The notes: generated by a model from the letters alone, not told the origin. 64,000 bases of DNA from Bacilli bacterium (GCA_022482735.1 JAKVOO010000001.1:1222837-1286836), one strand, 5' to 3'; counted from the first letter of the stretch, positions 1 through 16,000 are shown. Translations and numbers: made by a program.

Positions 1-963
1 GATATTGCGGTAAACATCAGATCAGCCAATCCCTGGTACTATGGTATGAGTGGCGGTAGTCAAAGCGGGATTTCTAACGTCCATACCACGAATGATTATG
101 CGGAAATTTGTAGTTTATCCTATGGGGAAGAGAGTAAAAGACCTCGCCTGATATTTTCTTATACAGACAGTGAACATTTGGAAAAATCAACGCCTTTTAC
201 CGAAATTGAAAATGGAAGATCAGGTACGGCCAGAATTAATTTATTTTCAAAGGAATACACTTTCACCCATCCGGATTTAACCATTAATTCAGGAAATCTT
301 TCCGTTGGTTTGTTTCATTTTTATAGCTCATTGTTTTCGCGAACCATAAGGGGAACAAATAATTCACTCGGCTGGGGTGTCGGTTGGAAAACCAATCTCC
401 ATCAATGGCTTTATAAGTATAAATATGCCGCTGATGCCGATGAACTTAAGGTCGTTTATACCGATGGATTGGGTAGCGATCATATTTTCCTTGAGCGATG
501 GTATTACGAAAAGAATGGTCAAAAAATCTGCATCAAACGCAGCGAAGTATACATCAATACCCTGGGGGAATTGGCTTATTTAGATCCGACGGGAAAAGAG
601 TATTTAGTAAAATATAAAGTTAAGTCGGACGATGGGCTAACTTTAACAACTTCAGCGGGGATGTTTGGTTATCGCGACAAGACAAAATTTAAAAGTATCA
701 ATAGAAAATATTTTGACGAACACAATAACGAAATTGCGATGCAAGGTGCCGATCTGAAATTAAAGCTGTATAGTACTCCCGGCCCGACATCGACACCCGG
801 TTTTGCTAATGCAGCGGAACTTTCATGGCTCAACGATAACGGGTTAGCCATAACCAGTCAGGATTTTAGGAATGATTTCGCCGATAATCTATGGAAATAC
901 TCTTTCGATATTAGTTCTGCGCTCTATTATCCCCACTTATGTAAACTCGCCACTTTTATATGA
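1..963 (+). CDS. 5'-partial ORF, open from window start in frame 1. Probable N-terminal/upstream part of the RHS/YD-repeat protein. Reading frame breaks near 870-1217.
   Basis: Frame-1 ORF is open from position 1 (ORF track 46..963). Overlapping open frames 872..1162 (frame 2) and ~1053..1217 (frame 3) then return to frame 1 at 1210, suggesting serial +1 shifts of one large gene. Confidence 0.45.
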   Translation, partial: DIAVNIRSANPWYYGMSGGSQSGISNVHTTNDYAEICSLSYGEESKRPRLIFSYTDSEHLEKSTPFTEIENGRSGTARINLFSKEYTFTHPDLTINSGNLSVGLFHFYSSLFSRTIRGTNNSLGWGVGWKTNLHQWLYKYKYAADADELKVVYTDGLGSDHIFLERWYYEKNGQKICIKRSEVYINTLGELAYLDPTGKEYLVKYKVKSDDGLTLTTSAGMFGYRDKTKFKSINRKYFDEHNNEIAMQGADLKLKLYSTPGPTSTPGFANAAELSWLNDNGLAITSQDFRNDFADNLWKYSFDISSALYYPHLCKLATFI

Positions 964-1209
964 CGGAACGGATTATTTTTCTATGTTTGCCAAAGCCAAG
1001 CATGAACTTCAAATTGTAAACCAATATAAAAATTCGTCTGTGAATCTACTAACGGTCAAAGATAAATTGGAAAGCACCAAGATTACAGGTGAAAAAGTCG
1101 GCTGTGTCTTTGATACAACCCTTGACCGACTACTACGAAACGGAGGAGATTTTACAACTTAAGAATCAAGTAGAACAATACGAGAATGCCATAGTCGAGG
1201 CAAAAGAAA

Positions 1210-4200
1210 ATGCCTAAAAATATATCCGGCAGTCTCGAGAGCGCAATCAACGGTTTGGAAGAACTAAAAAAATCCAAGGCGAGAATTCATGTTTCAATTA
1301 ATCAACAAAAAATAAGTTATGATCCAGATAATGTAAATTCAGACGCTTTTAAAATGGCATGTTATTCCCTCCAAGGCAATCTAGACCAAATTGAGTTGCA
1401 AATTAAAAGTGCGGACGGACAAATAGTCTCAACTAAAACCAGTTTGGCACGAGCGCTTAGAACGGTTGATGAATATGAACTAATCAGGGATAATCTTCAA
1501 GCAAAATTAGCGGGGCTTATCAAGAAACAAAAGGAAGCCCCCAATGATTTTATTACTGATGAAGAAGGAAATATTCTTGGCTTTGACTACTATGGGCGGC
1601 TTGTTTTAATCGCGGATAAATACGAAAAAGCGATACGGATTAAATTTAAGGAAGACAAGGATTTGTTTGAAGAGATTCAAACCGAAAATGGAATAATTAA
1701 GTTTAATTATGACAGCAATGAACTATTGAAAGAAATAGTTGATGTGAATGGAAAAACAATTTGCTTTAGTTACACCAACCCAAAGTTTTTATCGACAATC
1801 AAGTATGACGATATAAGCGCGCATAATTCGACTTTTGCCTATCAGAATGATCGGTTAACCAAAGTTACCGATGCGGCGGGTTTCAATCTAACAATCAGTT
1901 CTTCGACCAATAGTTTATTTGTCGTTCAATCTACGACTACGAAAAAAATCAACAACGATGGTTTAGTCGGATTTGCTGAACAGCAAACAAAAAAAATAAT
2001 CGATTTATCATTGGTAAAATCGGGATTGAACACGACATTAACCAACAACATGAATAACGATGTTGCCACCTATTCGTTTGACGAATTAGGTCGGCCGTTA
2101 AATGTTATCAGTTCACGCGGTGCGGATAGTGAATATAACTATGCAAAATATAATGATCATGGTGATGTTCTCATTGAATCAACTTTTTCTAGTCGGCACA
2201 TTCTTCGAAAGTTTATCGAAAACGGAACATCGACTGGTCTTAGCCGAACCGTTTTGTTCAGCGATACGGACGATGTAAGTGATAATATTTGGCGGGGTAA
2301 TCTCTTAAATACCGATACTTTAGTTTATTATTTTGAGTTTCAAAGTGATAGTGGCCAAGCAAGTTTTATGGCTACGATTACGATTACAAATAGAGATGGC
2401 AGCAGTAATATAAAGCAAATATCAATTACCAACCAAACCAAGGTCTTGTTGCTACCGATAATTTGCAACAAAGACAACATTATTCAAGCTAAAATCGAGA
2501 CCACATCGGTATCGCAAGTGAAAAGTTTTGGTATTGCCACCGGGGATGGAATATTTAGCGCATATGATGATGATAATTTAATTGAAGAGCGACAGGGACT
2601 TAACACAACCTTGTATTTAGACTTCAACCATAAAAAGCCGACCAAAATAAAAACGATCGATCGATATAATAATACTAAGGTTAGCGTTTTATCATATAAT
2701 GACAAAGGTCAATTAACCTATAACGAAGATCAAGATGGCAACATCGAGGAAAGATTTTATAACCCCGAGGGCGAACTATTAGAAAGCGTAGCTTATAACA
2801 AAAAATCGGCGACCGATAAAACCATCAATAAATACGAGTATGACGAAGATGGCAATGTGACCGAACTAAACGGATTGCTTCCAAATAAAGAAGGAAAGAT
2901 TAATCCGACAAAAAACCAGTACTATCCCGGAACAAAAAAAGTCAATTATCAAACGGCACCGAATGGTTTAGTCACGAGTTATGGTTTCGATTTTTATAAT
3001 GGTAGTTTACTTTCGAAAAGTGCTGAAGTAGATGGTATAGCCAACACCACCAACTATCACTATCAATTTGGTTTTTTGACGAGTGTTTCCCATCAGGAAT
3101 TTGATATTCACTATGAATTTGATGGGCAAGGTCGCAAGACAAGCGTCGATGTTGCATGCAATAATATTGTCAAGTTTGAATATGACGACAATTTTATTGT
3201 GGATGGTTACTTAGGAAGTAAAATTATTACAAAGTATTTTAATCACGGAATGCTTGACAACGCCGTTACGGTCATAAGCGATATTTACGGTAAAACAAAA
3301 AGCGTCGCCGACACCGCAGGAACAAGCATTGCATACAACTACGATAGTTTTGATCGTTTGACGTCAACTATAAGTAACAATGAGTCAACGCATTTTGAAT
3401 ACGACAAGCGGGGAAATATCAAATATAGCGATATCGTTTATAATGATTTCGGCAAGGTGGATTTTAATTACACCTACACGATAAAAGATCAGGTTGAAGA
3501 GAGTATAACGACGATTAGCGATACCGCAGAGCTTTATAAGTATAAAACCAAATTTATATATGATCCCTTGGATCGCCTGATACAAGTACATAATTATTTT
3601 AATGTTAATAACCTAAAAAGTGATGATAAGTTAACTGATGAATACGACTTTTCCAATCGATTAATTAAGGAGCGGATTCACATTAAGGATGATGATGAAC
3701 CAAGCGAAAAGCATCAATTGCTGGCTAATGAATATTTATATCTAAAAAGTGAAAATCAAGCGACTAATTTGATTAAAAAGAACGTGACAACCCTACTTGA
3801 CGATACTCAAGATGTCACAACCTATAACTATGATGAGATGGGAAATATTACCCGTATCAAAAACAGCGATAATGATATTACTTACGAATACGATAAGCTT
3901 AGTCGCCTCACACGGGAGAATAATCGCAAATTAGAATATAGCCAAATATTTGAGTATGATGAAAGTGGCAACATTTTACGGAGCGAAAAGTATGCATATA
4001 CGAAAGGCGAACTCACCATCTTCATTAGTGGCAGCACATATTCGTACAATCAAAGCAACTATCAGGATCAGCTTGTTGACTTCAATGGAGAAGAGATTAT
4101 TTATGACGGACTAGGTAGACCGACCACATATCGAAACAAGACCTTAGTATGGTCCCCGCGGAGCACACTACTTAATTACGATGGTTATCAATATCAATAT

Positions 4201-5352
4201 AATGAGCAAGGAATACGTATTAGGAAAGTAGTCGGAGATACAACCCATAAGTATTATGTTTTGGGAACCAAAATATATACCGAAGAACTAATTCGTGATG
4301 GTATTAGTAAACTCATTAAGTATCGGTATTTTGGTGATAAACTGTATGGCTTCAATTATAATGATATTGATTATTACTATATCAGAAACACCCAGGGTGA
4401 TATCACATCGATTATTACTAAAGGCGGCACAGAGGTTGCAAGGTATACATATGATGCTTGGGGTAACCATGTAGTCAGTAATTTAACCGGTGACAATATC
4501 GGAGATATCAATCCATTTAGATATCGTGGATATTACTTTGATCAAGAGACTGGACTATACTATCTAAATGCAAGATATTATGATCCCGAAACAGGAAGAT
4601 TTATCAGTCAAGATAACATCAGTTATTTAGAACCGGAAATGATTAATGGTTTGAACTTGTATGCTTATTGTGGAAATAATCCTGTTATGAATGTTGATCG
4701 AAATGGTACCTCTTGGTGGAAAGATTTTTGGGGTGGTGTAAAAGACTTTTTTGATAATCCAATTACACAAGCTGTAATAGGAGGTTTAATAATTGTTGGA
4801 CTAGGAATAGCAACAATTCTTACTTTAGGTGCTACGGCTCCTATAACTGGACTTGCTGCTTCAATGGTTGTGGGTGCTTTCTGGGGTGCAGTTGCGAGTG
4901 CAACGTTTGGCGCTATATCTGGCGGAATTCAGTTTTCTGACGGAAAAATTGGATGGTCGTGGTCTGGTGCAGCAAATGGGTTCATGTGGGGCGCGATTAC
5001 TGGAGGTATAGCCGGTGCTGCTGGAGCATGGTTAGGAAATATTTCTTTTATGAAAGCAGCGGTAGAGAATGGTTCTAAATTTGCAAGAGCAATAAATTTT
5101 GGTTTTCAAGTAACTAGTAATTCAGCATTATCTGCTTCAGTTACCACAATTCAAGGATTGATAACAAATAATTTTTCTTGGACAGATGTGGCTTTTTCTG
5201 CGGCTTTTGGTGCACTGGGGGGCGCGCTTGGGAATTGGTTGTCAGGAACAAAATGGGAGAAAGGTATAAGAGGATTTATGATTGGTTTTGGCTTAACTGG
5301 TTTAGAATCAGTCACAGCATTCTTGTACTATTTGTATGGAGATAAAGAATGA
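1210..5352 (+). CDS. RHS/YD-repeat polymorphic toxin (WapA-like) with a C-terminal glycine-zipper hydrophobic toxin tip
   Basis: 1380-aa ORF with many YD repeats (YEYDxxGN, RYTYDAWGN). Conserved RHS core end YYLNARYYDPETGRFISQDNISYLEPEMINGLNLYAYCGNNPVMNVDRNGTSWW. This is followed by a ~210-aa Gly/Ala-rich hydrophobic tail with GxxxG/AxxxA repeats. Confidence 0.85.
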   Translation: MPKNISGSLESAINGLEELKKSKARIHVSINQQKISYDPDNVNSDAFKMACYSLQGNLDQIELQIKSADGQIVSTKTSLARALRTVDEYELIRDNLQAKLAGLIKKQKEAPNDFITDEEGNILGFDYYGRLVLIADKYEKAIRIKFKEDKDLFEEIQTENGIIKFNYDSNELLKEIVDVNGKTICFSYTNPKFLSTIKYDDISAHNSTFAYQNDRLTKVTDAAGFNLTISSSTNSLFVVQSTTTKKINNDGLVGFAEQQTKKIIDLSLVKSGLNTTLTNNMNNDVATYSFDELGRPLNVISSRGADSEYNYAKYNDHGDVLIESTFSSRHILRKFIENGTSTGLSRTVLFSDTDDVSDNIWRGNLLNTDTLVYYFEFQSDSGQASFMATITITNRDGSSNIKQISITNQTKVLLLPIICNKDNIIQAKIETTSVSQVKSFGIATGDGIFSAYDDDNLIEERQGLNTTLYLDFNHKKPTKIKTIDRYNNTKVSVLSYNDKGQLTYNEDQDGNIEERFYNPEGELLESVAYNKKSATDKTINKYEYDEDGNVTELNGLLPNKEGKINPTKNQYYPGTKKVNYQTAPNGLVTSYGFDFYNGSLLSKSAEVDGIANTTNYHYQFGFLTSVSHQEFDIHYEFDGQGRKTSVDVACNNIVKFEYDDNFIVDGYLGSKIITKYFNHGMLDNAVTVISDIYGKTKSVADTAGTSIAYNYDSFDRLTSTISNNESTHFEYDKRGNIKYSDIVYNDFGKVDFNYTYTIKDQVEESITTISDTAELYKYKTKFIYDPLDRLIQVHNYFNVNNLKSDDKLTDEYDFSNRLIKERIHIKDDDEPSEKHQLLANEYLYLKSENQATNLIKKNVTTLLDDTQDVTTYNYDEMGNITRIKNSDNDITYEYDKLSRLTRENNRKLEYSQIFEYDESGNILRSEKYAYTKGELTIFISGSTYSYNQSNYQDQLVDFNGEEIIYDGLGRPTTYRNKTLVWSPRSTLLNYDGYQYQYNEQGIRIRKVVGDTTHKYYVLGTKIYTEELIRDGISKLIKYRYFGDKLYGFNYNDIDYYYIRNTQGDITSIITKGGTEVARYTYDAWGNHVVSNLTGDNIGDINPFRYRGYYFDQETGLYYLNARYYDPETGRFISQDNISYLEPEMINGLNLYAYCGNNPVMNVDRNGTSWWKDFWGGVKDFFDNPITQAVIGGLIIVGLGIATILTLGATAPITGLAASMVVGAFWGAVASATFGAISGGIQFSDGKIGWSWSGAANGFMWGAITGGIAGAAGAWLGNISFMKAAVENGSKFARAINFGFQVTSNSALSASVTTIQGLITNNFSWTDVAFSAAFGALGGALGNWLSGTKWEKGIRGFMIGFGLTGLESVTAFLYYLYGDKE

Positions 5353-5996
5353 AATATTTAATTGGATTTCTATTTATATTATTTTTAGTCTTGTTTTTCA
5401 CTGTTCCTCTTGCTTTTGGCATATATGAAAGTGATAGAATGCACAAAAAATGGAACAAAAATAATAAGATTATTTATTTAGGAAAGATGAACTTCATGTT
5501 TTTAAACTATCCAAAAACAAGCAAAGAAATGAGCAAGTTTGCTTTTACTTGCAATGTATCACTTTATTCATATGTTTTTGTAACTATTATTATTGCTGGA
5601 GTGTTTGCTTTCATAATTCCAAACTTGAATATATTATTGTATTGCACATATTCGATTATAATTTTGCCTATTGGAATTTTCTTGATATCTATGATTGAAG
5701 GAACGAGGTTTTATAAGGAAAAACATCTTGAGAAAAAAAATAAACTTGAAATGTCGGGCATTGTCTCTATTGTGAAAAGAGCAGTCAGAAGCGTGCTTCA
5801 AACGTATGTCGATTCGCTCAAAAAAGAAGGCAAGTTTGACAAAGAAGCGCAAGCTAGAGCTTTGGAACTTGCCCGCACACGGATATTGGCTGAATTAAAT
5901 GTGGAAGCAAGAGAATTCATAACTGCAAATTATGGTGATCTGAACGCTTTTATAACAAACCAAATAGAAGCTACTATTAACTTGTTAAAAAAATAA
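5349..5996 (+). CDS. Putative immunity protein (N-terminal multi-TM, C-terminal charged/coiled region)
   Basis: Start overlaps the rhs stop (ATGA). Hydrophobic N-terminal helices. Position immediately 3' of the toxin tip. Confidence 0.45.
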   Translation: MKYLIGFLFILFLVLFFTVPLAFGIYESDRMHKKWNKNNKIIYLGKMNFMFLNYPKTSKEMSKFAFTCNVSLYSYVFVTIIIAGVFAFIIPNLNILLYCTYSIIILPIGIFLISMIEGTRFYKEKHLEKKNKLEMSGIVSIVKRAVRSVLQTYVDSLKKEGKFDKEAQARALELARTRILAELNVEAREFITANYGDLNAFITNQIEATINLLKK

Positions 5997-6613
5997 CTTA
6001 GGAGTATTTATTGGGGCATAAAAATCCGATTGTACTATCGTCATCAAAGAGTGATTGTTTTAGGTTACATATAGTAATAATGCGGTTGGAAATTTGGCAT
6101 ATGATTGTAATGAATGATTTGGAAAATGAAAAACACACGATTTAACACTAATTACATGAAGCAAGCATAAATCTATAAAACACTATTTAAGTAGAAAAAC
6201 CATAATACGAGTACGTATGGTTAAAAAAGTGTTTACTATTGGATTATCAGTATTATTAGTGATTTGCGTGATTTCCACATTAACACACGTTATTCTAGAC
6301 ATCGGACTATCTTTCTATATATTCAATGGTGAGTTTTTGGTTAAGATATCGAATGTGTTTTTCCGTATTATGTGGCTATCCCTAGTTCTTTTATATTTAT
6401 GAATTCAAATATAAAGACAAAATTATTTTTATAGGAATGATTGAAAAGGGGAGACTTAATAAAAGGAAAGTATGGCATTTTGTTGTCAACAATCTAAACA
6501 ATAATGACAAAGTAATATACTCAGAATATGGTACGGCAGAGTTACTTTTAGAAAATGCATGTATTGAAGGTAAAAAGATAAGAGAATTATGGGAAGATTT
6601 AATTATAGAATAA

Positions 6614-7894
6614 GTTTTTGATGGATTAGGTAGACCAACAACATATAGAGATAAAACACTTGCATGGTCACCTAATAGTACCTTGTCTGCATATGAAAGT
6701 TTTAATTATACTTACAATAATCAAGGCATTAGAATTGAAAAAGTAGTTAGTCATGCAACGCATAAATATTTCGTTAATGGAACGAAGACATTATTAGAAG
6801 AATTAAAAACCAACAATGTTAAGAAATATTTTAAGTACAAGTATTTTGGTGATAAGCTGTATGGCTTCAATTATAATGATATTGATTATTACTATATCAG
6901 AAACATCCAGGGTGACATCACATCGATTATTACTAAGGATGGCACAGAGGTTGCAAGGTATACATATGATGCCTGGGGTAATCATGTAGTAAATAATTTA
7001 ACTGAAGACAATATCGGTGATATCAATCCATTTAGATATCGGGGATATTACTATGACAAGGAAACCCAGTTATATTACCTCAATGCTAGATATTATGATC
7101 CGGAAGTCGGAAGATTCATCAGTCAAGACAATATTAGTTACCTTGCACCAGAAACAATAAATGGACTAAATCTTTATGCTTATTGTGGGAATAATCCGGT
7201 GATGTACCTTGACAGAGCCGGACATAGCTGGGAAAGTTTCTGGAGTAGTGTTGGAAATTTTTTTGCTAATGTTGGTAAAGTTATAGGCGGAGGATTACTA
7301 GCAATAGCCGGAGCTGCATTTACTATAATAACCCTTCCGATTGCTTTGATAATTCCTGGTGGAGGATTTCTAACTCAAATAGGATTTTCGACAGCAATGT
7401 ATGGAGGATTTGTAGCTGCATCTGTATTCGATAGTCAAGTTAAGTCAGACATGCAAGCGATAGGATGGAATCCTTTTAATTCTAGTGAGAGTGCCGTGCT
7501 TAATTCCAATAGTGTGTCTTTTTATAAGGGTGTTCCAGTTTTTAGAACGGCTCCTGGTAGCAGGTCCGGATCTTTTTTAGGAATTTTCTTAGATAGTAAT
7601 GAAAAAGATGACGCATATGGAAGAGACACCGTTCGACACGAATGGGGACACAATATACAGCAAGGTATAATGGGACCAGCTAGATTTGCTCTCATGATAG
7701 GACTTCCTTCTTGGCAGGAATGGAGTAACAGAAGTTATTACACAAGACCGTGGGAAATAATGGCTGATATTTTCGGGAACGTCCATGAAACAAGGAATCA
7801 TAATAAATCGGATGTTTCAAGAGGAATTTGGTATACGATAATATCCACGATGTTTGGTCCGTTTGGCTATTTTTTTCTAATCGGTGAGTACTAA
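6614..7894 (+). CDS. Orphan rhs C-terminal tip module 1 (no own 5' start before Met 6683). Alternative toxin tip with an HEWGH (HExxH) motif.
   Basis: Translation from 6614 (FDGLGRPTTYRDKTLAWSP...QGIRIEKVV...RYTYDAWGNHVV...LNLYAYCGNNPVMYLDRAGHSW) is collinear with the last ~180 aa of the main RHS core. The tip then diverges (Gly-zipper segment followed by RHEWGHNIQQ). Confidence 0.6.
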   Translation, partial: VFDGLGRPTTYRDKTLAWSPNSTLSAYESFNYTYNNQGIRIEKVVSHATHKYFVNGTKTLLEELKTNNVKKYFKYKYFGDKLYGFNYNDIDYYYIRNIQGDITSIITKDGTEVARYTYDAWGNHVVNNLTEDNIGDINPFRYRGYYYDKETQLYYLNARYYDPEVGRFISQDNISYLAPETINGLNLYAYCGNNPVMYLDRAGHSWESFWSSVGNFFANVGKVIGGGLLAIAGAAFTIITLPIALIIPGGGFLTQIGFSTAMYGGFVAASVFDSQVKSDMQAIGWNPFNSSESAVLNSNSVSFYKGVPVFRTAPGSRSGSFLGIFLDSNEKDDAYGRDTVRHEWGHNIQQGIMGPARFALMIGLPSWQEWSNRSYYTRPWEIMADIFGNVHETRNHNKSDVSRGIWYTIISTMFGPFGYFFLIGEY

Positions 7895-7916
7895 TTTATA
7901 TTGGAGGTGAAATCAA

Positions 7917-8429
7917 TTGAAAAAATCAAAAAACATAACTATTTATATTTATTTTGTTATCTCAAGTCTTTTCTTGACGGGATGCAGCGATTTATATAAA
8001 GGGTATACAGGAGAGCATCCTGACCTATATTCTGTGGCAATCAACAGCAAAGAGGATTTTTTAGGTTACATTAGATCGGAAGTGCGGCATCAACCCGTCG
8101 TCGAATCGCTTGAAGAAGATCACTACGGAAGGCAGCTTTTTGTCTATTCCGAAGGTCAAGGCACCTCCGGCGATGTTTATTTGATTATTTCGCAATATGC
8201 GACGGATGAAAATGCTTATTTCTATTATGGAATCAATTACATTTCGGAAGAGATTATAGAAGGAAACTATATTCATCTTTATGGTTCAAAAAAACCGGCG
8301 ACTATCGATAATCCTTATAATGAATTCGCCATAGATGAGATCAATGAGCTTAAGCAGTCAAATGACTGGGGCGAGGAAATTGATATTTCCAAATGTACAC
8401 AAGTGGAGATTGTCAATGAAAAAAACTAG
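7917..8429 (+). CDS. Lipoprotein, putative cognate immunity protein
   Basis: Signal peptide plus lipobox LFLTGCSD. Immediately 3' of orphan tip 1, after an AGGAGG-like RBS. Confidence 0.4.
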   Translation: MKKSKNITIYIYFVISSLFLTGCSDLYKGYTGEHPDLYSVAINSKEDFLGYIRSEVRHQPVVESLEEDHYGRQLFVYSEGQGTSGDVYLIISQYATDENAYFYYGINYISEEIIEGNYIHLYGSKKPATIDNPYNEFAIDEINELKQSNDWGEEIDISKCTQVEIVNEKN

Positions 8430-8638
8430 TAACATCATAGATTTTCTAAATAAGACTAACTTGTTATGCTAGTTCGTTTCTTTTAATCCATTTACAAATA
8501 ATTCTTGACGCCACCTAATTTCATAAACTTTTATTTTAAGAAGAAAGTATGCTATTAAAGGATAGCTTAAGTCATCAATTAAAAATAAAACATACTCATA
8601 CGGAAAATTAATTATCAGTATTAATATCGACATAATGA

Positions 8639-9559
8639 GCAAGGTATACATATGATGCTTGGGGTAACCATGTAGTCAGTAATTTAACCGGCGACAATAT
8701 CGGGGATATCAATCCATTTAGATATCGGGGATATTACTATGACAAGGAAACCCAGTTATATTACCTCAATGCTAGATATTATGATCCGGAAGTCGGAAGA
8801 TTCATCAGTCAAGACAATATTAGTTATCTAGAACCGGAGACAATTAATGGATTAAACCTTTATGCTTATTGTGGCAATAATCCAGTAATGATGACAGATA
8901 GTACCGGATGCACGCCTTGGTATGATATTTTAGGTTGGATAGGTCTTGGTCTTGTTGCAGCAGCAGCTATTGTTCTTACAGCGGGTATGGCGGGTGCCGT
9001 TATCGGCGGAATTGCAGGCGGAATAATTTACGGAGCCGCGATAGGAACTCTTGCAGGAGCCGCAATAGGAGCAGTCGGCGGTGCCGTAGTCGGAATGATT
9101 TATGACGGCGTTAATGGAAATGCGTTTGGCACGAGTATTTGGAGCGGTGTAAAAGCAGGATTTGGAATCGGGGCAATCGCAGGGGCAATAATTAGTGGTG
9201 CGATTGGTGGTGCGGCGGCTTCCTCGGTTACGGGAATGACTAATACATCGTTTTGGACTGGATTAGGTTCGAATGGATCAAGCATTGCTGCCAATGCTGC
9301 TGGACAGCAAGGGCTTACAACAATAGGGCAAACATTTGGTGGAAAAGTTGTAGCGGGGGTATCAAAATTTGTACCCAAAGCTGTTTCAAGGGTTCTATGG
9401 GCTTCATTGTCCAAAACTATGGCCTCTACTGTAGCCATGTCGAGCGTTTCAGTCTTTTATGGAGGCACAGTTTTTGCAGGTTCAGTGTTTGCTATGTATG
9501 AATTACCTTACTTGGCAGCAAGGGGCATCGAAATACTTTATCATCTTCTTGGAGGTTAA
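8639..9559 (+). CDS. Orphan rhs C-terminal tip module 2 (5'-truncated; first in-frame ATG at 8888). Glycine-zipper toxin tip.
   Basis: In-frame translation from 8639 (ARYTYDAWGNHVVSNLTGDNIGDINPFRYRGYYYDKETQLYYLNARYYDPEVGRFISQDNISYLEPETINGLNLYAYCGNNPVM) matches the RHS core end, followed by a Gly/Ala-rich hydrophobic tip. A TGA lies immediately upstream. Confidence 0.55.
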   Translation, partial: ARYTYDAWGNHVVSNLTGDNIGDINPFRYRGYYYDKETQLYYLNARYYDPEVGRFISQDNISYLEPETINGLNLYAYCGNNPVMMTDSTGCTPWYDILGWIGLGLVAAAAIVLTAGMAGAVIGGIAGGIIYGAAIGTLAGAAIGAVGGAVVGMIYDGVNGNAFGTSIWSGVKAGFGIGAIAGAIISGAIGGAAASSVTGMTNTSFWTGLGSNGSSIAANAAGQQGLTTIGQTFGGKVVAGVSKFVPKAVSRVLWASLSKTMASTVAMSSVSVFYGGTVFAGSVFAMYELPYLAARGIEILYHLLGG

Positions 9560-9560
9560 C

Positions 9561-10046
9561 ATGAAACAAATTGAGGGTTTTATATCTGATCAAATAAATA
9601 ATGATGAGATTGGTGAGTATGTCGTATATCGTACTTATAGAAAAATGATGACTAAATACTCACACTATGATGAGCTTGATCCAAAAACTTACAAGGAGCC
9701 ACAATTATATATCAAAGAGGTGCCTTCTTTTGATGAAACTTATGAAATGTTTATGTCGTATAATAGTTTAAATTTGACAAAAAATAGAGCTCAAGATATT
9801 TGTTTATCATTATTTTATAATCCATATTTTGAGGAGATATACGATAAAATAAGAAAGAACTATAAGAATATTCCAAAGAATAAGTTAAGATATTTAGCAA
9901 AAAATTTGTTTGAATGTTTGGCGGATCCAGTTCAATATCGAATAATTGTCGAAATCAATATATTTGATAAACCCACTAAGAACTATTACATTGAAAAGGA
10001 TATTTTCAACAAAAGCAATGAATTGCTAAAGCTAATTAATACTTAA
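9561..10046 (+). CDS. Putative immunity protein (soluble, ~161 aa)
   Basis: GGAGG RBS then ATG at 9561 directly after the tip-2 stop. The longer ORF call 9459.. overlaps the toxin tail and looks like read-through of the frame. Confidence 0.4.
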   Translation: MKQIEGFISDQINNDEIGEYVVYRTYRKMMTKYSHYDELDPKTYKEPQLYIKEVPSFDETYEMFMSYNSLNLTKNRAQDICLSLFYNPYFEEIYDKIRKNYKNIPKNKLRYLAKNLFECLADPVQYRIIVEINIFDKPTKNYYIEKDIFNKSNELLKLINT

Positions 10047-10096
10047 AAACAGACAATTAAATTAAAACCACAGCAAACAAACAACTTGTTAAAAAA

Positions 10097-10130
10097 CGCG
10101 GTAGTCAGGAAACTGGCTACCGTTTTTTGT
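10097..10130 (+). terminator. Rho-independent terminator
   Basis: cggtagtcag..ctggctaccg stem followed by TTTTTT. Confidence 0.55.
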
Positions 10131-10286
10131 TTAGATAAAACCTGAAACAGATATATTGTCAAAATTTTTAATAGAAACATTAAATATCTCTTAAGGCGTT
10201 CACAAACATTTGAAATGTAATCTATTCTATTTAATTTATTTTTTACATTAAATTTGCTATAAGTACGGATAACTTTGAGGGGATTT

Positions 10287-11402
10287 ATGAGGATGGAATT
10301 TAAAGATAAAGTTAAAGCCGCAAGACTAAAAGCTTTCATGAGTCAGGAAATGTTTGCTAAGGAAATTGGATTAGCTTTCTCAACTGTGAACAGGTGGGAA
10401 AATGGCTTAGAGGTCGATTACTATTACCTAAGAAATACCCAAGGTGATATCGCTTCAATTATTGATCGAAATTGTATTGAAGTAGCAAGATATACATATG
10501 ATGCCTGGGGTAATCATGTAGTAAATAATTTAACTGAAGACAATATCGGTGATATCAATCCATTTAGATATCGTGGATATTACTTTGATCAAGAGACTGG
10601 ACTATACTATCTAAATGCAAGATATTATGATCCCGAAACAGGAAGATTTATCAGTCAAGATAACATCAGTTATTTAGAACCGGAAATGATTAATGGTTTG
10701 AACTTGTATGCTTATTGTGGAAATAATTCTGTTATGAATGTTGATCGAAATGGTACCTCTTGGTGGAATCCATTCACTTGGGATGCTAAAACATGGAATA
10801 TTATTGGTGCGATTGCGACTGTTGCCGTTATTGCTGTAGCTGTTGCAGCAACTGCTGCACTTGCTATCGCTACTGGAGGTATTGCTGGTGCAGCTATAAT
10901 GTTCATTGCAATTAGTACGGGTTTTGGTACAGCAATTGGTGGAGCTTCTGCAATTGCCAACGGAACAAGCATAACTGCTGGTGTTTTAACAGGGGCATTT
11001 AAAGGAGCAGCAACTGGTGCAGCAGTTGGTTTGGGTATAATGACTGGTGGCGGTGCCTTTTCGGTTATGGGAGGTGTGGCAGCATTTGGTGGTGCACTCG
11101 GTATTAATTTTGCAACTGGTATGTTAAATTATACTATTGATAATAGTTTAAATAATCGTGGTTTAAATTGGGGCGATGCTTTAGGAAGCGGCAGTATGCA
11201 AATGTTATCTGGAGCAGCTGCATTTGCTTCTGGATTATTAATTGGTGCTTCTGGATTCTACAATGTTCTAGGTACAACAAAGATGTTTTCTGGTCAATGG
11301 TTTGGAAACATCGCTGTTGGACAACTATTTAAAGGTATAATATACTATCCTCTTAACTTCGTATTCTCTATGTTGCAAAGAAATAATTTTAGTGGGAGTT
11401 AA
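10287..11402 (+). CDS. Chimeric ORF: XRE-family HTH N-terminus fused in frame to an rhs core-end fragment plus glycine-zipper toxin tip (orphan module 3)
   Basis: N-terminus MEFKDKVKAARLKAFMSQEMFAKEIGLAFSTVNRWENG is a Cro/C1-type HTH. It is followed directly by VDYYYLRNTQGDIASII...RYTYDAWGNHVV...NNSVMNVDRNGTSWW, collinear with the main RHS core, then a Gly/Ala-rich hydrophobic tip. Confidence 0.55.
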   Translation: MRMEFKDKVKAARLKAFMSQEMFAKEIGLAFSTVNRWENGLEVDYYYLRNTQGDIASIIDRNCIEVARYTYDAWGNHVVNNLTEDNIGDINPFRYRGYYFDQETGLYYLNARYYDPETGRFISQDNISYLEPEMINGLNLYAYCGNNSVMNVDRNGTSWWNPFTWDAKTWNIIGAIATVAVIAVAVAATAALAIATGGIAGAAIMFIAISTGFGTAIGGASAIANGTSITAGVLTGAFKGAATGAAVGLGIMTGGGAFSVMGGVAAFGGALGINFATGMLNYTIDNSLNNRGLNWGDALGSGSMQMLSGAAAFASGLLIGASGFYNVLGTTKMFSGQWFGNIAVGQLFKGIIYYPLNFVFSMLQRNNFSGS

Positions 11403-11405
11403 TCA

Positions 11406-11930
11406 ATGGAAAAAATTAAATTACAATCGAATAGGAAATGGATATTTATAACTATATTACCTGGTGCAATTATTATATTAGCGGTCATTTTATTAATATT
11501 GGTAATGCTAATAGTTGATTTTGAAACAACTCGGAACCTTGGCATACCGATTGTATTACTTTACATACTGATTCCAGCAGAATGTGTCTATATCGCAATA
11601 CTTTTAGTAACAAAGTATAAAAAAGGTATGAGTTATGTATTTTATGCTGATAGAATTGAAATATACAAAAAAAATATATTTCAATATGCAATTAATGTTT
11701 CAGATATTGACACAATGAACTATTATCCGTTCAGATTTCATTATATACTAACAATATATGCAGGTGCTTTGCCAGAAGGTGGAGCTTGGAAAATTCATAT
11801 TGCAACGAGTGATCATGAAAAACATTCCTTAGGTTATATCAGTCAACACGATGCTAGAAAGATTAAAGAAATATACCCACATCTGATGAAGATTATGTAC
11901 GACAAGAAAGATCAAACTACTAATGATTAG
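11406..11930 (+). CDS. Putative immunity protein, membrane (2 TM then soluble domain)
   Basis: Starts 4 nt after the chimera stop. Hydrophobic N-terminus. Confidence 0.4.
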   Translation: MEKIKLQSNRKWIFITILPGAIIILAVILLILVMLIVDFETTRNLGIPIVLLYILIPAECVYIAILLVTKYKKGMSYVFYADRIEIYKKNIFQYAINVSDIDTMNYYPFRFHYILTIYAGALPEGGAWKIHIATSDHEKHSLGYISQHDARKIKEIYPHLMKIMYDKKDQTTND

Positions 11931-11983
11931 AGTATTAGATATTTTCTATCAATGCTTTTATAAAGATTACCGAACAAGTATAT

Positions 11984-12166
11984 TTGACAGATTTCAAACC
12001 ACAAGTTGAATTTATAAAAAATTTATTAGACTATTTATCTGATGATATGCAATGCGAAATAATTGTAAAAAGCGGAATGGCAACAAATGATTTAAAGCAG
12101 TATCATTTAGCGAATGATATTTATAACAGAAGCAAAGAATTGTCACGCCTAATCTTGATTAAATAG
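11984..12166 (+). pseudogene. Remnant of an immunity-type gene
   Basis: Its C-terminus ...NDIYNRSKELSRLILIK resembles the C-terminus ...KDIFNKSNELLKLINT of the 9561..10046 protein. Only ~60 codons are open. Confidence 0.3.
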
Positions 12167-12474
12167 AAATTCGATAATAATAAAACAATAAAAATTTTAA
12201 TTTTTTAGATAGGGTTTTTGAATAAATTCTTTCTTTTTTATTAAAATAAATTTTTTGATAGCCAGAAGTCGCTGATATGTGTAGAGTTGTAAATGATGTG
12301 AGACCAATTTTTTTAGGGAAAGAAGACTGATTTGCTAATATCATTTAGGCAAATATTTCTTTAATTATTAATTATTCTCTTTTTTTTAAAGGCGTGATTC
12401 ATTCAAGCGAAGAACTGCAGATATTGTTCAATTGGATTAATTTTTCCTTCTTTTTGTTTTACTAAACTTAATGA

Positions 12475-12503
12475 TTGCAATATCGACTTTTACAAGTTAT
12501 AAT
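12475..12503 (+). promoter_or_regulatory. Sigma-A type promoter for rpmG-secE-nusG
   Basis: TTGCAA, 17-nt spacer, TATAAT. Confidence 0.5.
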
Positions 12504-12541
12504 TCTATCGATAAAATTATTACATAAGGATGTGATTTTAG

Positions 12542-12694
12542 GTGCGGGAAAAGGTTCTTTTAATTTGCTCAGAATGTCTATCACGAAACTATACAACCAC
12601 ACGGCGGAAAGACGCCAGCGTAACAGAGCGTCTTGAGTTAAAAAAATTTTGTCCAAAATGCAACAAGATGACGATCCATAAGGAAAGCCGCTAG
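12542..12694 (+). CDS. rpmG: 50S ribosomal protein L33
   Basis: GTG-initiated 50-codon [53 protein letters not shown] (Cys-x2-Cys zinc ribbon), immediately upstream of secE-nusG. Below the ORF-track length cutoff. Confidence 0.75.
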
Positions 12695-12703
12695 GAGGAT
12701 ATT

Positions 12704-12904
12704 ATGTCAGCAAAGAAATATTTTGGCGAAGTCGTCAAAGAAGGAAAAAGAGTTCGGTGGCCCAAGCGGGAAACGATTATTCCTCTTATTGTCGTGGTTG
12801 TTATTATCACGGCGATTTCGGCCTTGATTTTAAATTTAGAGGACTTGGCGGCGGCGCGCTTATTAGGCGCGGTCGAAGATGCCTTTAAAGCGATCAAAGG
12901 ATAG
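12704..12904 (+). CDS. secE: Preprotein translocase subunit SecE
   Basis: 66 aa with a single TM. RBS AGGAGG. Position between rpmG and nusG. Confidence 0.8.
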   Translation: MSAKKYFGEVVKEGKRVRWPKRETIIPLIVVVVIITAISALILNLEDLAAARLLGAVEDAFKAIKG

Positions 12905-12914
12905 GGAGTTCTAA

Positions 12915-13469
12915 ATGGAAAATAATGAAAAAGATGTTCAATGGTATGTTGTTAATACCTATTCTGGACACGAGAATACAGTTAAACTAAATCTTCTACG
13001 GCGTGCTGATTCGATGAATTTGCATGATTTTGTCTTTCGGGTCATTGTCGCAGAAATTGAAGTTGATGTTCTTAAAGATGGTCTCCCCACGGGTAAGAAA
13101 AAGATGAAGAATCTTTATCCCGGTTATGTCTTTATTGAAATGATTATGTCGGATGAGGCATGGTATATGGTGCGTAATACCCCAGGCGTCACCGGATTCG
13201 TCGGCTCCAGTGGCGGCGGCACCAAGCCATTCCCGGTTCCCCGCGAGCAGATTGAACCGATTCTGAAACGGATGGGTGAAATTGATGCGAGTATGTATGA
13301 CCGGTACACGGTTGGAGACTTTGTTAAGGTTATCCATGGATCTTTTGAAGGAACGGAAGGAAGAATTACTTCCATTGATAAAGATACGGGCAACGTTAAA
13401 CTTGAAGCCGTCTTCTTTGGCCGGCCGACGGTTCTCGAAGTTGAATTCGCGCAAATAGAGAAGATTTAA
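12915..13469 (+). CDS. nusG: Transcription termination/antitermination factor NusG
   Basis: NGN plus KOW domain sequence. Conserved synteny. Confidence 0.95.
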   Translation: MENNEKDVQWYVVNTYSGHENTVKLNLLRRADSMNLHDFVFRVIVAEIEVDVLKDGLPTGKKKMKNLYPGYVFIEMIMSDEAWYMVRNTPGVTGFVGSSGGGTKPFPVPREQIEPILKRMGEIDASMYDRYTVGDFVKVIHGSFEGTEGRITSIDKDTGNVKLEAVFFGRPTVLEVEFAQIEKI

Positions 13470-13473
13470 AAAT

Positions 13474-13503
13474 TATTCCCACGTAAAAGTGGGAATTTTT
13501 TTG
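13474..13503 (+). terminator. Rho-independent terminator after nusG
   Basis: ttcccacgtaaaagtgggaa hairpin plus T7. Confidence 0.7.
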
Positions 13504-13561
13504 TTGACAATATGAATGCCCGTTCATATAATGTAGACGATATATGAATGAATATTCATAT
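13504..13561 (+). promoter_or_regulatory. Consensus promoter (TTGACA-17-TATAAT) with two ArsR/SmtB-type 12-2-12-like inverted repeats
   Basis: TTGACA at 13504-09 and TATAAT at 13527-32. Inverted repeat ATATGAATgcccgTTCATAT lies inside the spacer (13510-29). A second repeat ATATGAATGAATATTCATAT lies at 13542-61, just upstream of the arsR-family gene. Confidence 0.6.
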
Positions 13562-13575
13562 TTAGGAGATGCGCT

Positions 13576-13875
13576 ATGACAAGAAAAATATTGCCTACCG
13601 AGGATGTATTAGAAAAGATGGAACATTTATTGAGCATCACCGCGGATTATACGCGATTAAAAATTTTGTGTGCCTTGCTGGACGGCCCCAAATATGTCGG
13701 AGAATTGCAAAGCATTGCCGATGCTTCCCAATCTCTTATTTCGCATCAACTGAAGGTATTAAAAGACGCCTCGCTGGTAAAGAATGAACGTGCAGGCAAT
13801 CATGTAAGTTATTCGTTGAGTGATGACCATGTCGCTTCACTCTTGTCAGTGGTTTTTGATCACGCATCCGAGTAG
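13576..13875 (+). CDS. ArsR/SmtB-family metal-responsive repressor (CzrA/CadC-like)
   Basis: 99 aa with a winged HTH (ELQSIADASQSLISHQLKVLKDASLV). Precedes a heavy-metal ATPase. Confidence 0.85.
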   Translation: MTRKILPTEDVLEKMEHLLSITADYTRLKILCALLDGPKYVGELQSIADASQSLISHQLKVLKDASLVKNERAGNHVSYSLSDDHVASLLSVVFDHASE

Positions 13876-13885
13876 AGGTTTGAAT

Positions 13886-16000
13886 ATGAAAAAACTATAT
13901 GATATTAAAGGCTTTGATTGCGCCAATTGCGCATTAAAAGTATCTCGTCATTTAAGTAGTGACCCCAAGATTAAAAGCGCTAGCATCGACTTTGTAAACG
14001 AAAAACTATATGTTGATTACCAAAAAGATGAACTTTCGATTGAGGAATTAAAACGGAAGGCCGCCGAAGTAGAAAGCGACCCGTTAGAAATACGCGAGCA
14101 CCGAAACTCGCAAGTGGCTAAGACCCCCATTTTAACAAGGGCAATTAAAATAAAAATATTGCGCATTATCATTAGTGCGGTTTTGCTTGGCTTAGTCTAC
14201 TTTTTTGATCGATATCCGCTCTTAACAACTGCGATGAACGAAGCACTAATCATCGCCGTTTCAATTATTAGTTATTTGCTCATTAGTTACGATATATTAT
14301 TTAAAGCGGGAAGAAATCTATTTACAGGACGAAGCGTTTTTGATGAAACGGTTTTGATGAGTGTGGCGACTTTGGGAGCATTTGCCATTCAAAGTTATGA
14401 AGAGGCAGTCTTGGTAATGCTTCTTTTTCAAATCGGTGAAATTTTTGAGGATATATCAATTGAAAAATCTCGTCGATCAATTGTTGCCGCCCTAGATTTA
14501 AGGAGTGATATCGCCCATGTATATCGCAATGATGAATATATGGATGTCGATCCTTCAATATTGGTAAAAGGTGATGTTATCATGGTGCGCGTTGGGGAGA
14601 TTATTCCGGTAGATTCGACGGTAATAAGCGGAACTGGATCATTAGATACATCGTCATTAACTGGCGAATTTTTACCTCAAGGCGTGGTTGCGGGGGATGT
14701 CGCTTTAAGTGGGACAGTTGTGACGGATGGCATTCTGATTTTAAAAGTCGAAAAAGCCTATCAAGAGTCGACAATTAGCAAAATAATTGAGCTAGTTACA
14801 ACTTCGGGAGAACATAAAGCCAAAGCTGAAAAATTTATCGCTCGCTTTTCTCGTTTTTATACTCCAATTGTAATGGCCTTAGCTCTTTTGGTGGCAATTA
14901 TTCCTCCCCTTTTTAATGGTGATTGGCGCGGAAGTGCCTACACGGCTTTAACTTTTCTTGTCGTATCTTGCCCTTGCGCCATCGTAATATCGGTTCCGCT
15001 TGCTTTTTTTACAGGAATTGGATTGGCAAGCAAAAAAGGCATTGTGATAAAGGGAGCCAATTATCTTGATCGACTCAATGAGGTTAAAACAATAATTTAT
15101 GACAAGACGGGGACTTTAACTACTGGAGAATTTTCTGTTACTAGCTTTTATTTTGTTAAAAGCGATGAACAAATTGCTCGGCAATTATTGGTATCTCTTG
15201 AATCGCTGAGCGGACATCCATTAGCAAAAGCCATAACTGGACATTTCAAAGATATTGAAATCTTAAATGTTGACCAGTTTCATGAGGAGACTGGCCGGGG
15301 ATTAAGGGCGTTATATGATGGGAAAGAAGTTTTAGTGGGCAATAGTCAGTTTTTAAAAAGCAACCATATTACTCTCGGCGAGACCATTCAAAGTGGAGTT
15401 GTTGTGTATGTTGCTTATGATAAACGGGTCATTGGCCGAGTAGAACTTAACGATACAATTAAACCGGGAGTCGCCGATATGGTTAGTAAATTGCATCGCG
15501 AGCATGTCCGTTTAGAAATGTTAACGGGCGATCGCGAAAGTAATGCGGCGCATATCAGTCAAAAAATTGGTATTGATGAATATCATGCTGAACTACTTCC
15601 TCAAGATAAAATTCGCTACCTTGATGAAAAACTGGCTGGATCTAATTCAAAGCAAGCTGTGGCTTTTATTGGCGATGGAGTTAATGATGCCCCATCCATT
15701 GCAAAGGCCGATATAGGAATTGCAATGGGAGGAATTGGCAGTGATATTGCTGTCAGCAGCGCAGATGCTGTGATTATGAACGATGATCCACGGAAGGTGG
15801 CCACAGCGATAAAAATAGCCCGCATTACCCGGCGAAGGGCAATAAGCAACATCGTCATTGCCCTAATTGTTAAAATTAGCGTTATGGTGCTAGCCTATTT
15901 CAATTTGGCTCCGATGTGGCTCGCCGTACTTAGCGATTCGGGATTAGCAATTCTTCTTGTTATAAATTCTCTGTTACTAATAAAAGCAAAAGTGGAATAA
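13886..16000 (+). CDS. Heavy-metal (Cd/Zn-type) translocating P1B-type ATPase
   Basis: N-terminal HMA domain (GFDCANCA), CPC transmembrane motif (SCPCAIV), DKTGTLT phosphorylation motif, GDGVNDAP hinge. ATG at 13886 with RBS; the ORF-track start 13820 is likely too early. Confidence 0.9.
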   Translation: MKKLYDIKGFDCANCALKVSRHLSSDPKIKSASIDFVNEKLYVDYQKDELSIEELKRKAAEVESDPLEIREHRNSQVAKTPILTRAIKIKILRIIISAVLLGLVYFFDRYPLLTTAMNEALIIAVSIISYLLISYDILFKAGRNLFTGRSVFDETVLMSVATLGAFAIQSYEEAVLVMLLFQIGEIFEDISIEKSRRSIVAALDLRSDIAHVYRNDEYMDVDPSILVKGDVIMVRVGEIIPVDSTVISGTGSLDTSSLTGEFLPQGVVAGDVALSGTVVTDGILILKVEKAYQESTISKIIELVTTSGEHKAKAEKFIARFSRFYTPIVMALALLVAIIPPLFNGDWRGSAYTALTFLVVSCPCAIVISVPLAFFTGIGLASKKGIVIKGANYLDRLNEVKTIIYDKTGTLTTGEFSVTSFYFVKSDEQIARQLLVSLESLSGHPLAKAITGHFKDIEILNVDQFHEETGRGLRALYDGKEVLVGNSQFLKSNHITLGETIQSGVVVYVAYDKRVIGRVELNDTIKPGVADMVSKLHREHVRLEMLTGDRESNAAHISQKIGIDEYHAELLPQDKIRYLDEKLAGSNSKQAVAFIGDGVNDAPSIAKADIGIAMGGIGSDIAVSSADAVIMNDDPRKVATAIKIARITRRRAISNIVIALIVKISVMVLAYFNLAPMWLAVLSDSGLAILLVINSLLLIKAKVE

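Follow-up and report, generated by a model that had tools for sequence, protein, structure and literature searches.

In a 64,000-nucleotide (nt) stretch of one strand from an uncultured gut-type Bacilli bacterium (GCA_022482735.1, JAKVOO010000001.1:1222837-1286836; here the window, with positions counted from its first letter), the third orphan cassette of an rhs locus is a chimeric open reading frame (ORF) of 369 amino acids (aa) on the plus strand (10293-11402), in which the N-terminal piece of an XRE-type regulator runs on, in the same frame, into rhs orphan sequence. The chimera is real: one ORF matches the helix-turn-helix (HTH) family HTH_3 (E 3.2e-8) and, further on, Rhs_assc_core (81.8 bits), which bears out the in-frame fusion proposed in an earlier note on this DNA. 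The reading favoured here, with modest confidence, is that the fusion is a one-off scar of illegitimate recombination that donated initiation signals to the last cassette of the array, with the immunity gene behind it as the beneficiary and the chimeric protein as a tolerated by-product.

Codons 1-38 of the ORF (MEFKDK...NRWENG, 10293-10406) are derived from the XRE gene and correspond to helices 1-3 of HTH_3. The junction codons L39-E40-V41 (10407-10415) follow, with XRE homology ending at G38 and RHS homology beginning GAGGTCGAT; RHS sequence starts at residue 41 of the chimera (VDYYYLRNTQGD). An RHS core tail (aa 42-154, DYYY... to ...NVDRNGTS, 10416-10754) leads into a variable tip (aa 155-369 plus the stop codon, 10755-11402), a Gly/Ala-rich, hydrophobic segment predicted to form a six-helix bundle and presumed to be a membrane-acting toxin. 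The Rhs_assc_core domain (TIGR03696, NCBIfam; cut-off 32.5 bits) is complete at aa 69-154 (10497-10754), and its core-end motif is NNSVMNVDRNGT rather than PxxxxDPxGL, a variant that the main rhs gene carries as well. The same ORF can be read from a TTG start at 10275 as 375 aa, with in-frame ATGs at 10287 and 10293, and gene callers working on independent contigs chose 10293 or 10287 as the start. The ATG at 10293-10295, which begins MEFKDK..., is the start common to all free-standing XRE relatives and is preceded at a distance of 10 nt by a Shine-Dalgarno (SD) sequence, GAGGGG (10277-10282).

The likeness of residues 1-38 to XRE proteins is beyond chance. Within a search space of 5.8 billion proteins, identity to free-standing XRE proteins of 62-64 aa (P0122 and P0123) reaches 79-82% (E 1e-11 to 1e-13) and is 66-74% to other free-standing members, and all 13 family-invariant residues are retained. 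The earlier note had described an HTH domain of ~45 aa; the actual piece is 38 aa long and the domain is incomplete. The N-terminal 48 aa of the chimera score 33.9 bits against Pfam HTH_3 (PF01381, cut-off 23), and the match covers only profile positions 1-32 of 55, well short of a complete five-helix domain of ~55 residues. The XRE relatives run ~25 residues further through a conserved segment, K-P-N-Y-x-A-Q-K-A-F-x-x-F-C-x-x-N-x-I, which is absent from the chimera; a joint MAFFT alignment of the relatives with the chimera split the XRE sequences. Lacking helices 4-5, the fragment is most unlikely to fold or bind DNA, and with an incomplete domain the chimera does not appear to be a functional member of the XRE regulator family. 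It is thus very improbable that the N-terminal HTH binds DNA and autoregulates or targets the chimera: helix 2-turn-helix 3 and every family-invariant residue up to G38 are present, but only 32 of the 55 HTH_3 positions are covered, 80+ relatives keep the additional residues (KPNY.AQKAF..FC..N.I), and the architecture was not met elsewhere in the searches. The XRE fragment would instead act only as a donor of initiation signals.

The join can be bracketed from both sides. A scan of species-representative genomes yielded 80 XRE loci (L023-L102) in gut Clostridia and Bacilli, nearly all full-length (61-81 aa; 53-81 aa over the whole set), and most of their tblastn matches end at residue 38 of the chimera (range 36-40); reciprocally, RHS matches to residues 1-100 start at residues 37-43. 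The breakpoint is therefore placed within codons 39-41 (10407-10415). At this point the window reads GAA AAT GGC TTA GAG GTC GAT, and P0008, a sister orphan from an alternative haplotype of the locus, reads TAT GGC TTC AAT TAT AAT GAG GTT GAT. The 7-nt ATGGCTT is common to the window junction and the RHS YGF codons of P0008, making a microhomology at the junction possible, although a simple join there would need an extra loss of 9 nt.

A fusion at the edge of a repeat raises the question of an artefact, either a false join at the repeated RHS core or a reading frame created by an indel error. Both the window and a 1.48-Mb JGI contig (L001) resemble long-read assemblies with frame errors elsewhere (the main rhs gene and, in L001, a split nusG), and contigs built from short reads stop at 10445, a little way into the repeat. 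Against this, the exact 369-aa protein is recorded on L001, on two contigs from other JGI samples (L002 and L003) and in NCBI as a 'MAG: Bacilli bacterium' protein (MAG, metagenome-assembled genome). At 100% identity to the window, L002 and L003 cover 7870-14020 and 8458-12037 and span the whole ORF. Six short Logan contigs from different Sequence Read Archive runs (L112-L117) show the identical junction and end 30-40 nt beyond it, at 10445, the point from which the RHS core is repeated. Because the junction is identical in more than 10 independent assemblies, among them L001-L003 and L112-L117 from separate samples, the chimeric assembly that the earlier note had allowed for is excluded and the join is real. 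The probability of an artefact is close to nil, and this reading is effectively refuted by the independent contigs that cross the junction.

The genomic setting of the XRE family gives an indication of the donor. The next gene starts -23 to +105 nt away, mostly within 50 nt, and at least 24 of the 37 distinct downstream proteins have DNA-methylase or type I R-subunit domains (N6_Mtase 10, C5 DNA_methylase 6, N6_N4_Mtase 4, HSDR_N 4); ResIII, Mrr, T5orf172 and UvrD domains also occur. Since the genes downstream of the family are mostly of restriction-modification (R-M) type, the donor was probably a small leader regulator of an R-M or defence operon. The closest sub-group (MEFKDKVK...) is often free-standing. 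As a whole the family (consensus ...SFATVNRWE.GK.KPN...F..FC..N.I) adjoins type I, II and III R-M genes, often overlapping them, in gut Clostridia, Bacilli and Negativicutes, and a comparison with NCBIfam returned no named family above the curated cut-off. The chimera resembles these R-M-leading XRE/Cro-C1 regulators in residues 1-38, in the SD-ATG arrangement and in the position of an extended -10 element; it differs in lacking their C-terminal ~25 aa and in being followed by RHS sequence, with no R-M gene nearby, and the status of the family as C-proteins is itself putative. The closest full-length relative, at 82% identity, lies on a 676-bp contig. The true donor, for which an identity above 82% would be expected, was not found: the species-representative genomes gave relatives of at most 74% identity, the 64-kb window holds no XRE paralogue or donor, and a search of a plasmid collection with P0123 returned only ~40% identical genes of the generic 'helix-turn-helix transcriptional regulator' kind.

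By position and homology the remainder of the ORF is a conventional orphan cassette. Three cassettes follow the main rhs gene (which ends at 5352) and its immunity gene, and the third, like the orphan rhs-CT/rhsI and cdiA-CT/cdiI modules described previously (Poole et al. 2011, PMC3150448; Koskiniemi et al. 2014, PMC3967940), has 5' homology to the 3' core of the main gene, a Rhs_assc_core domain with a variable tip, and then a small immunity-like ORF with its own SD; tip swapping between strains is a further likeness. Orphan rhs toxin fragments normally lack translation initiation signals (Poole et al. 2011, PMC3150448), whereas here a foreign SD, ATG and 38 codons precede the cassette, which lies behind a terminator. 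Positions 10417-10768 are 91% identical in DNA to the main rhs core at 4373-4721, including an exact run of 177 nt, and the core of the third orphan is a mosaic: 10416-10483 resembles the P0008 orphan (L004) at 91%, 10484-10551 resembles orphan 1 at 94-100%, and the main gene is matched without a difference over 10551-10727. As the 177-nt exact match has been kept, the cassette would still be a substrate for homologous exchange, and the ordinary function of an orphan, the swap into the main gene by homologous recombination, can still take place here.

What sets this cassette apart is the DNA upstream of it. An intrinsic terminator lies at 10098-10133 on the plus strand (stem-loop 10098-10123), with an 11-bp perfect stem and a 4-nt loop, then UUUUUUGUUU, and an A-run before it. 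Its folding free energy is -20.7 kcal/mol (z -5.3; none of 200 shuffled sequences folded equally well), and it is the sole convincing terminator in 5900-12700, the other match of the scan being a 5-bp stem inside the coding sequence of orphan 2. Because of this strong terminator just upstream, the XRE-derived signals are the only visible route by which the last cassette could be transcribed. An extended -10-like element, TGCTATAAG, is found on the plus strand at 10255-10263 (the earlier note had placed this TGcTATAAG at 10252-10260) and ends 30 nt before ATG 10293, with TTTATT at the -35 position (10235-10240). Upstream of the XRE relatives, TTGCAA-N17-TGnTAnAAT likewise ends ~30 nt before the ATG; given the same distance, the element of the window is taken as homologous in position. 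Promoter activity from the captured signals is possible; in Firmicutes an extended -10 (TG) can function without a -35. With regard to translation, both an SD and a proper start are missing from orphans 1 and 2 but present in every immunity-like ORF of the array, and the chimera is the only orphan of the array with an SD and ATG. Between the terminator and the ORF (10124-10292) there are only weak AT-rich inverted repeats, and alignment with the relatives shows no evident conserved operator (C-box). A low-complexity 98-aa ORF on the minus strand (10043-10339), which crosses the terminator and the AT-rich stretch between the genes, is probably not a gene.

On the favoured reading, illegitimate recombination, by deletion or insertion, in a rearrangement-prone rhs locus would have joined the 5' end of an XRE gene to the orphan cassette at the DYYY motif of the last YD repeats, and codons 1-38 would have come together with their ATG, their SD and a probable promoter. 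The selectable product would be the immunity protein encoded downstream, whose gene is the likely main beneficiary of any transcription. This 174-aa immunity-like ORF (11406-11930, plus strand) starts 3 nt past the toxin stop with its own SD (GGGAG, 8 nt before the ATG) and encodes two N-terminal transmembrane (TM) segments; its role is assigned from its position, and it has no match in Pfam or NCBIfam. The 369-aa chimera would stay in the cell, as export would be precluded without the RHS shell and N-terminal delivery part, and would be tolerated as a by-product neutralised by the immunity protein.

One strain bears on the need for the chimera. A stop between the HTH and RHS parts, which the earlier note had regarded as fatal to the fusion, occurs in a single assembly (L013, SRR29876926; protein P0121). 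L013 has the same junction, and a C-to-G change at 10421 turns Tyr43 into TAG (...NRWENGLEVD-stop-YYLRNTQGDI). Four differences near this stop are third-codon-position changes that match the P0008-type allele, so the stop looks like real sequence. As L013 carries TAG three codons past the junction, the full-length chimera is not universally maintained and would appear to be dispensable.

The main rival is that the fusion is an inert relic, a neutral scar whose promoter has decayed and from which neither the chimera nor the immunity gene is expressed, the cassette persisting as stored DNA. We consider this possible but on the unlikely side. Several observations weigh against the reading favoured here or in favour of a relic. 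The -10 reads TATAAG, with a final G where the relatives have the T of TAnAAT, and this final T is among the two -10 positions that matter most in sigma-70/sigma-A promoters; the -35 (TTTATT) is poor; and promoter-like matches in this AT-rich region are at chance level (37 versus 34 +/- 6 in shuffles). The captured promoter may therefore be weak or dead, and of the promoter, ribosome-binding site and start codon that the earlier note had thought captured, the donor SD, the ATG and the homologous position of the -10 stand, whereas the promoter itself is in doubt. An in-frame state is expected by chance in 1 of 3 joins, and the fusion occurs in one lineage only. From ~4100 to ~12500-13000, an end point that varies by strain, all strains but L013 are identical, which leaves no sign of selection on the XRE fragment, and the stop of L013, which also fits a relic, rests on the last 38 nt of one contig. 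Finally, the unfused ancestral state was not found; deletion and insertion are accordingly undistinguished and the exact breakpoint is not proven. Two scans of metagenome contigs for an unfused XRE gene or orphan 3 (with degenerate XRE and exact tip patterns) were empty in a collection that does not contain this organism, exact-protein look-ups of both flanking immunity genes returned only the same arrangement, and the free-standing XRE gene that the earlier note had envisaged at an orthologous position did not emerge from genome, metagenome-contig or exact-protein searches. The relic reading is in turn opposed by the intact SD and ATG, the 13 invariant residues, an intact immunity ORF with a good SD and 100% conservation across all samples, and the general capacity of extended -10 promoters in Firmicutes noted above.

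A more active role has to be considered in light of the tip. Aa 155-369 contain 18% Gly and 17.5% Ala with many small-xxx-small motifs, and an AlphaFold2 model of this segment is a six-helix bundle of moderate confidence (predicted local distance difference test score, pLDDT, 67; predicted template modelling score, pTM, 0.66). There was no significant match to the tip in Pfam (including Gly-zipper), NCBIfam or the PDB, by sequence or fold, and other Bacillota RHS proteins and orphans carry members of its family, at 51-60% identity. The membrane-depolarising glycine-zipper toxins TelE, EsxX and TspA of Firmicutes (PMC10434224, PMC12744356) are similar in having a Gly/Ala-rich, helical and hydrophobic toxic part with repeated small-xxx-small motifs and a membrane immunity protein, but no sequence or fold relationship is detectable, and they are carried by LXG/T7SS proteins (T7SS, type VII secretion system) rather than by RHS proteins. 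Some relatives of the tip family lie in orphan-only arrays (L103:7340-16000; L008:8001-10867), with no full-length rhs gene within 8-10 kb. The L103 array is just upstream of rpsL-rpsG-fusA-tuf, as the window array is upstream of rpmG-secE-nusG-rplK, and in L008 the orphan lies behind a terminator, with a weak SD ahead of its GTG start.

By analogy, the captured signals could have turned a silent orphan into an autonomously expressed toxin/immunity pair, an addiction or growth-control module resembling a toxin-antitoxin (TA) system. The chimera would be made in the cytoplasm, an Asp-protease motif would free the tip, and the tip would depolarise the cell's own membrane unless blocked by the two-TM immunity protein. 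In Salmonella Typhimurium, internal promoters drive the Rhs-CTs of main genes and orphans alike, which behave as type II TA pairs (Starsta et al. 2020, PMC7043789), and EsxX is reported to be toxic both when made in the cytoplasm and when it arrives from outside (PMC12744356). The chimera also has the complete Rhs_assc_core with the cleavage region, an SD and ATG, and a tightly linked immunity gene. The parallel with Salmonella Rhs-CT/RhsI (PMC7043789) is that the cell could produce a tip plus a little of the core while the shell and delivery part are absent, with immunity acting as the antitoxin; the difference is that the promoters and the CTG start of that system lie inside conserved rhs sequence and were shown experimentally, whereas the candidate signals here are foreign and captured, in a MAG of a Gram-positive-type Bacilli host. 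Self-cleavage outside the RHS shell is unproven, the tip matches no characterised toxin, and the stop in L013, by which the toxin part can be lost without losing the locus, speaks against necessity. We consider a TA-like module unlikely. Were it true, the end of the array beyond the operon terminator would be kept under selection, and L013 would be a strain with its toxin disarmed and its immunity kept.

The fusion appears to be a one-lineage event among the proteins searched and not a new kind of system. No combination of HTH and RHS was found in the best 120 homologues of the whole chimera, nor in the best 150 of 9781 matches to residues 1-100 among 1.84 billion representative proteins, and a phmmer check of 277 fetched proteins identified HTH-RHS only in P0001 and P0121. 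The retrieved literature, in a search that was not exhaustive, contains no case of a foreign gene's 5' end fused to an orphan toxin.

The array in which the chimera lies is on the plus strand throughout. The main rhs gene (1-5352) has YD repeats and a helical, Gly-rich tip; its frame is intact from 1210 to 5352 (a 1380-aa ORF with Rhs_assc_core at aa 1081-1166), and the upstream part is in shifted frames, which change near 932, ~1100 and ~1210 relative to an intact 2113-aa protein of L004. The breaks of L001 are different (~2957, 3035 and 3740 in its own coordinates, plus the split nusG). Long-read indel errors could account for these changes; alternatively, the delivery gene of the window strain could be a pseudogene. 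The main tip is followed by an immunity-like membrane protein (5349-5996) with several hydrophobic segments, its role likewise assigned from position. Orphan 1 and its immunity ORF (6614-8429) consist of a core tail with an HEWGH tip (6614-7894) and a lipoprotein-like ORF (7917-8429); HEWGH is an HExxH, metallopeptidase-like motif, the N-terminus of the following ORF is lipoprotein-like (LTGC), and neither tip nor immunity ORF has a Pfam match. Orphan 2 and its immunity ORF (8639-10046) comprise ~83 codons of core tail with a Gly-zipper-like tip (8639-9559) and an ORF at 9561-10046. Past the chimera and its partner, 11984-12166 encodes 60 aa from the C-terminus of an immunity protein related to that of orphan 2 (E 1e-9, with 41% identity over 46 aa), a remnant which shows that a further cassette once ended the array. 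The genes rpmG-secE-nusG follow downstream. An Rfam scan of 5000-14000 detected no RNA family, and there is no tRNA near the locus.

The locus is also variable among strains. Contigs L004-L007, from the same samples as L002 and L003, represent an alternative haplotype of the same locus (L004:993-11756 and L006:5589-6322, compared with window 1-5774). Its core is 93.9% identical to window 1-4689, and it has a different main tip and immunity gene, the extra orphan P0008 and remnants of an IS3-like transposase; of the main tip seen in the window it keeps only the final ~270 nt, and behind these stands the immunity gene known from the window. This haplotype is direct evidence of tip replacement and of decay linked to an insertion sequence (IS) at the locus; along with the mosaic core of the third orphan and the immunity remnant, it speaks for a locus that rearranges, as the favoured reading supposes. 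Elsewhere, differences between strains come in patches, at 12500-14000 (L104/L105 and L111) and at 14000-15000 in L106, in a P-type ATPase gene. In L104, ~110 differences fall within 1.5 kb near the 3' end of nusG and an ArsR-type gene, and the flanks and the orphan array are identical. These patches look like imported recombination tracts.

Orphan cassettes are usually seen as silent stores that become active after recombination, and the work on Salmonella added internal promoters. The locus described here exemplifies a third route, in which an unrelated regulator gene contributes its 5' end by gene fusion, and does so in a gut bacterium of Gram-positive type, a setting where RHS biology has barely been studied. 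As a single-lineage event, it serves as an illustration more than as a discovery. Should the cassette be transcribed from the captured signals, it would show how immunity genes located past an operon terminator stay expressed.

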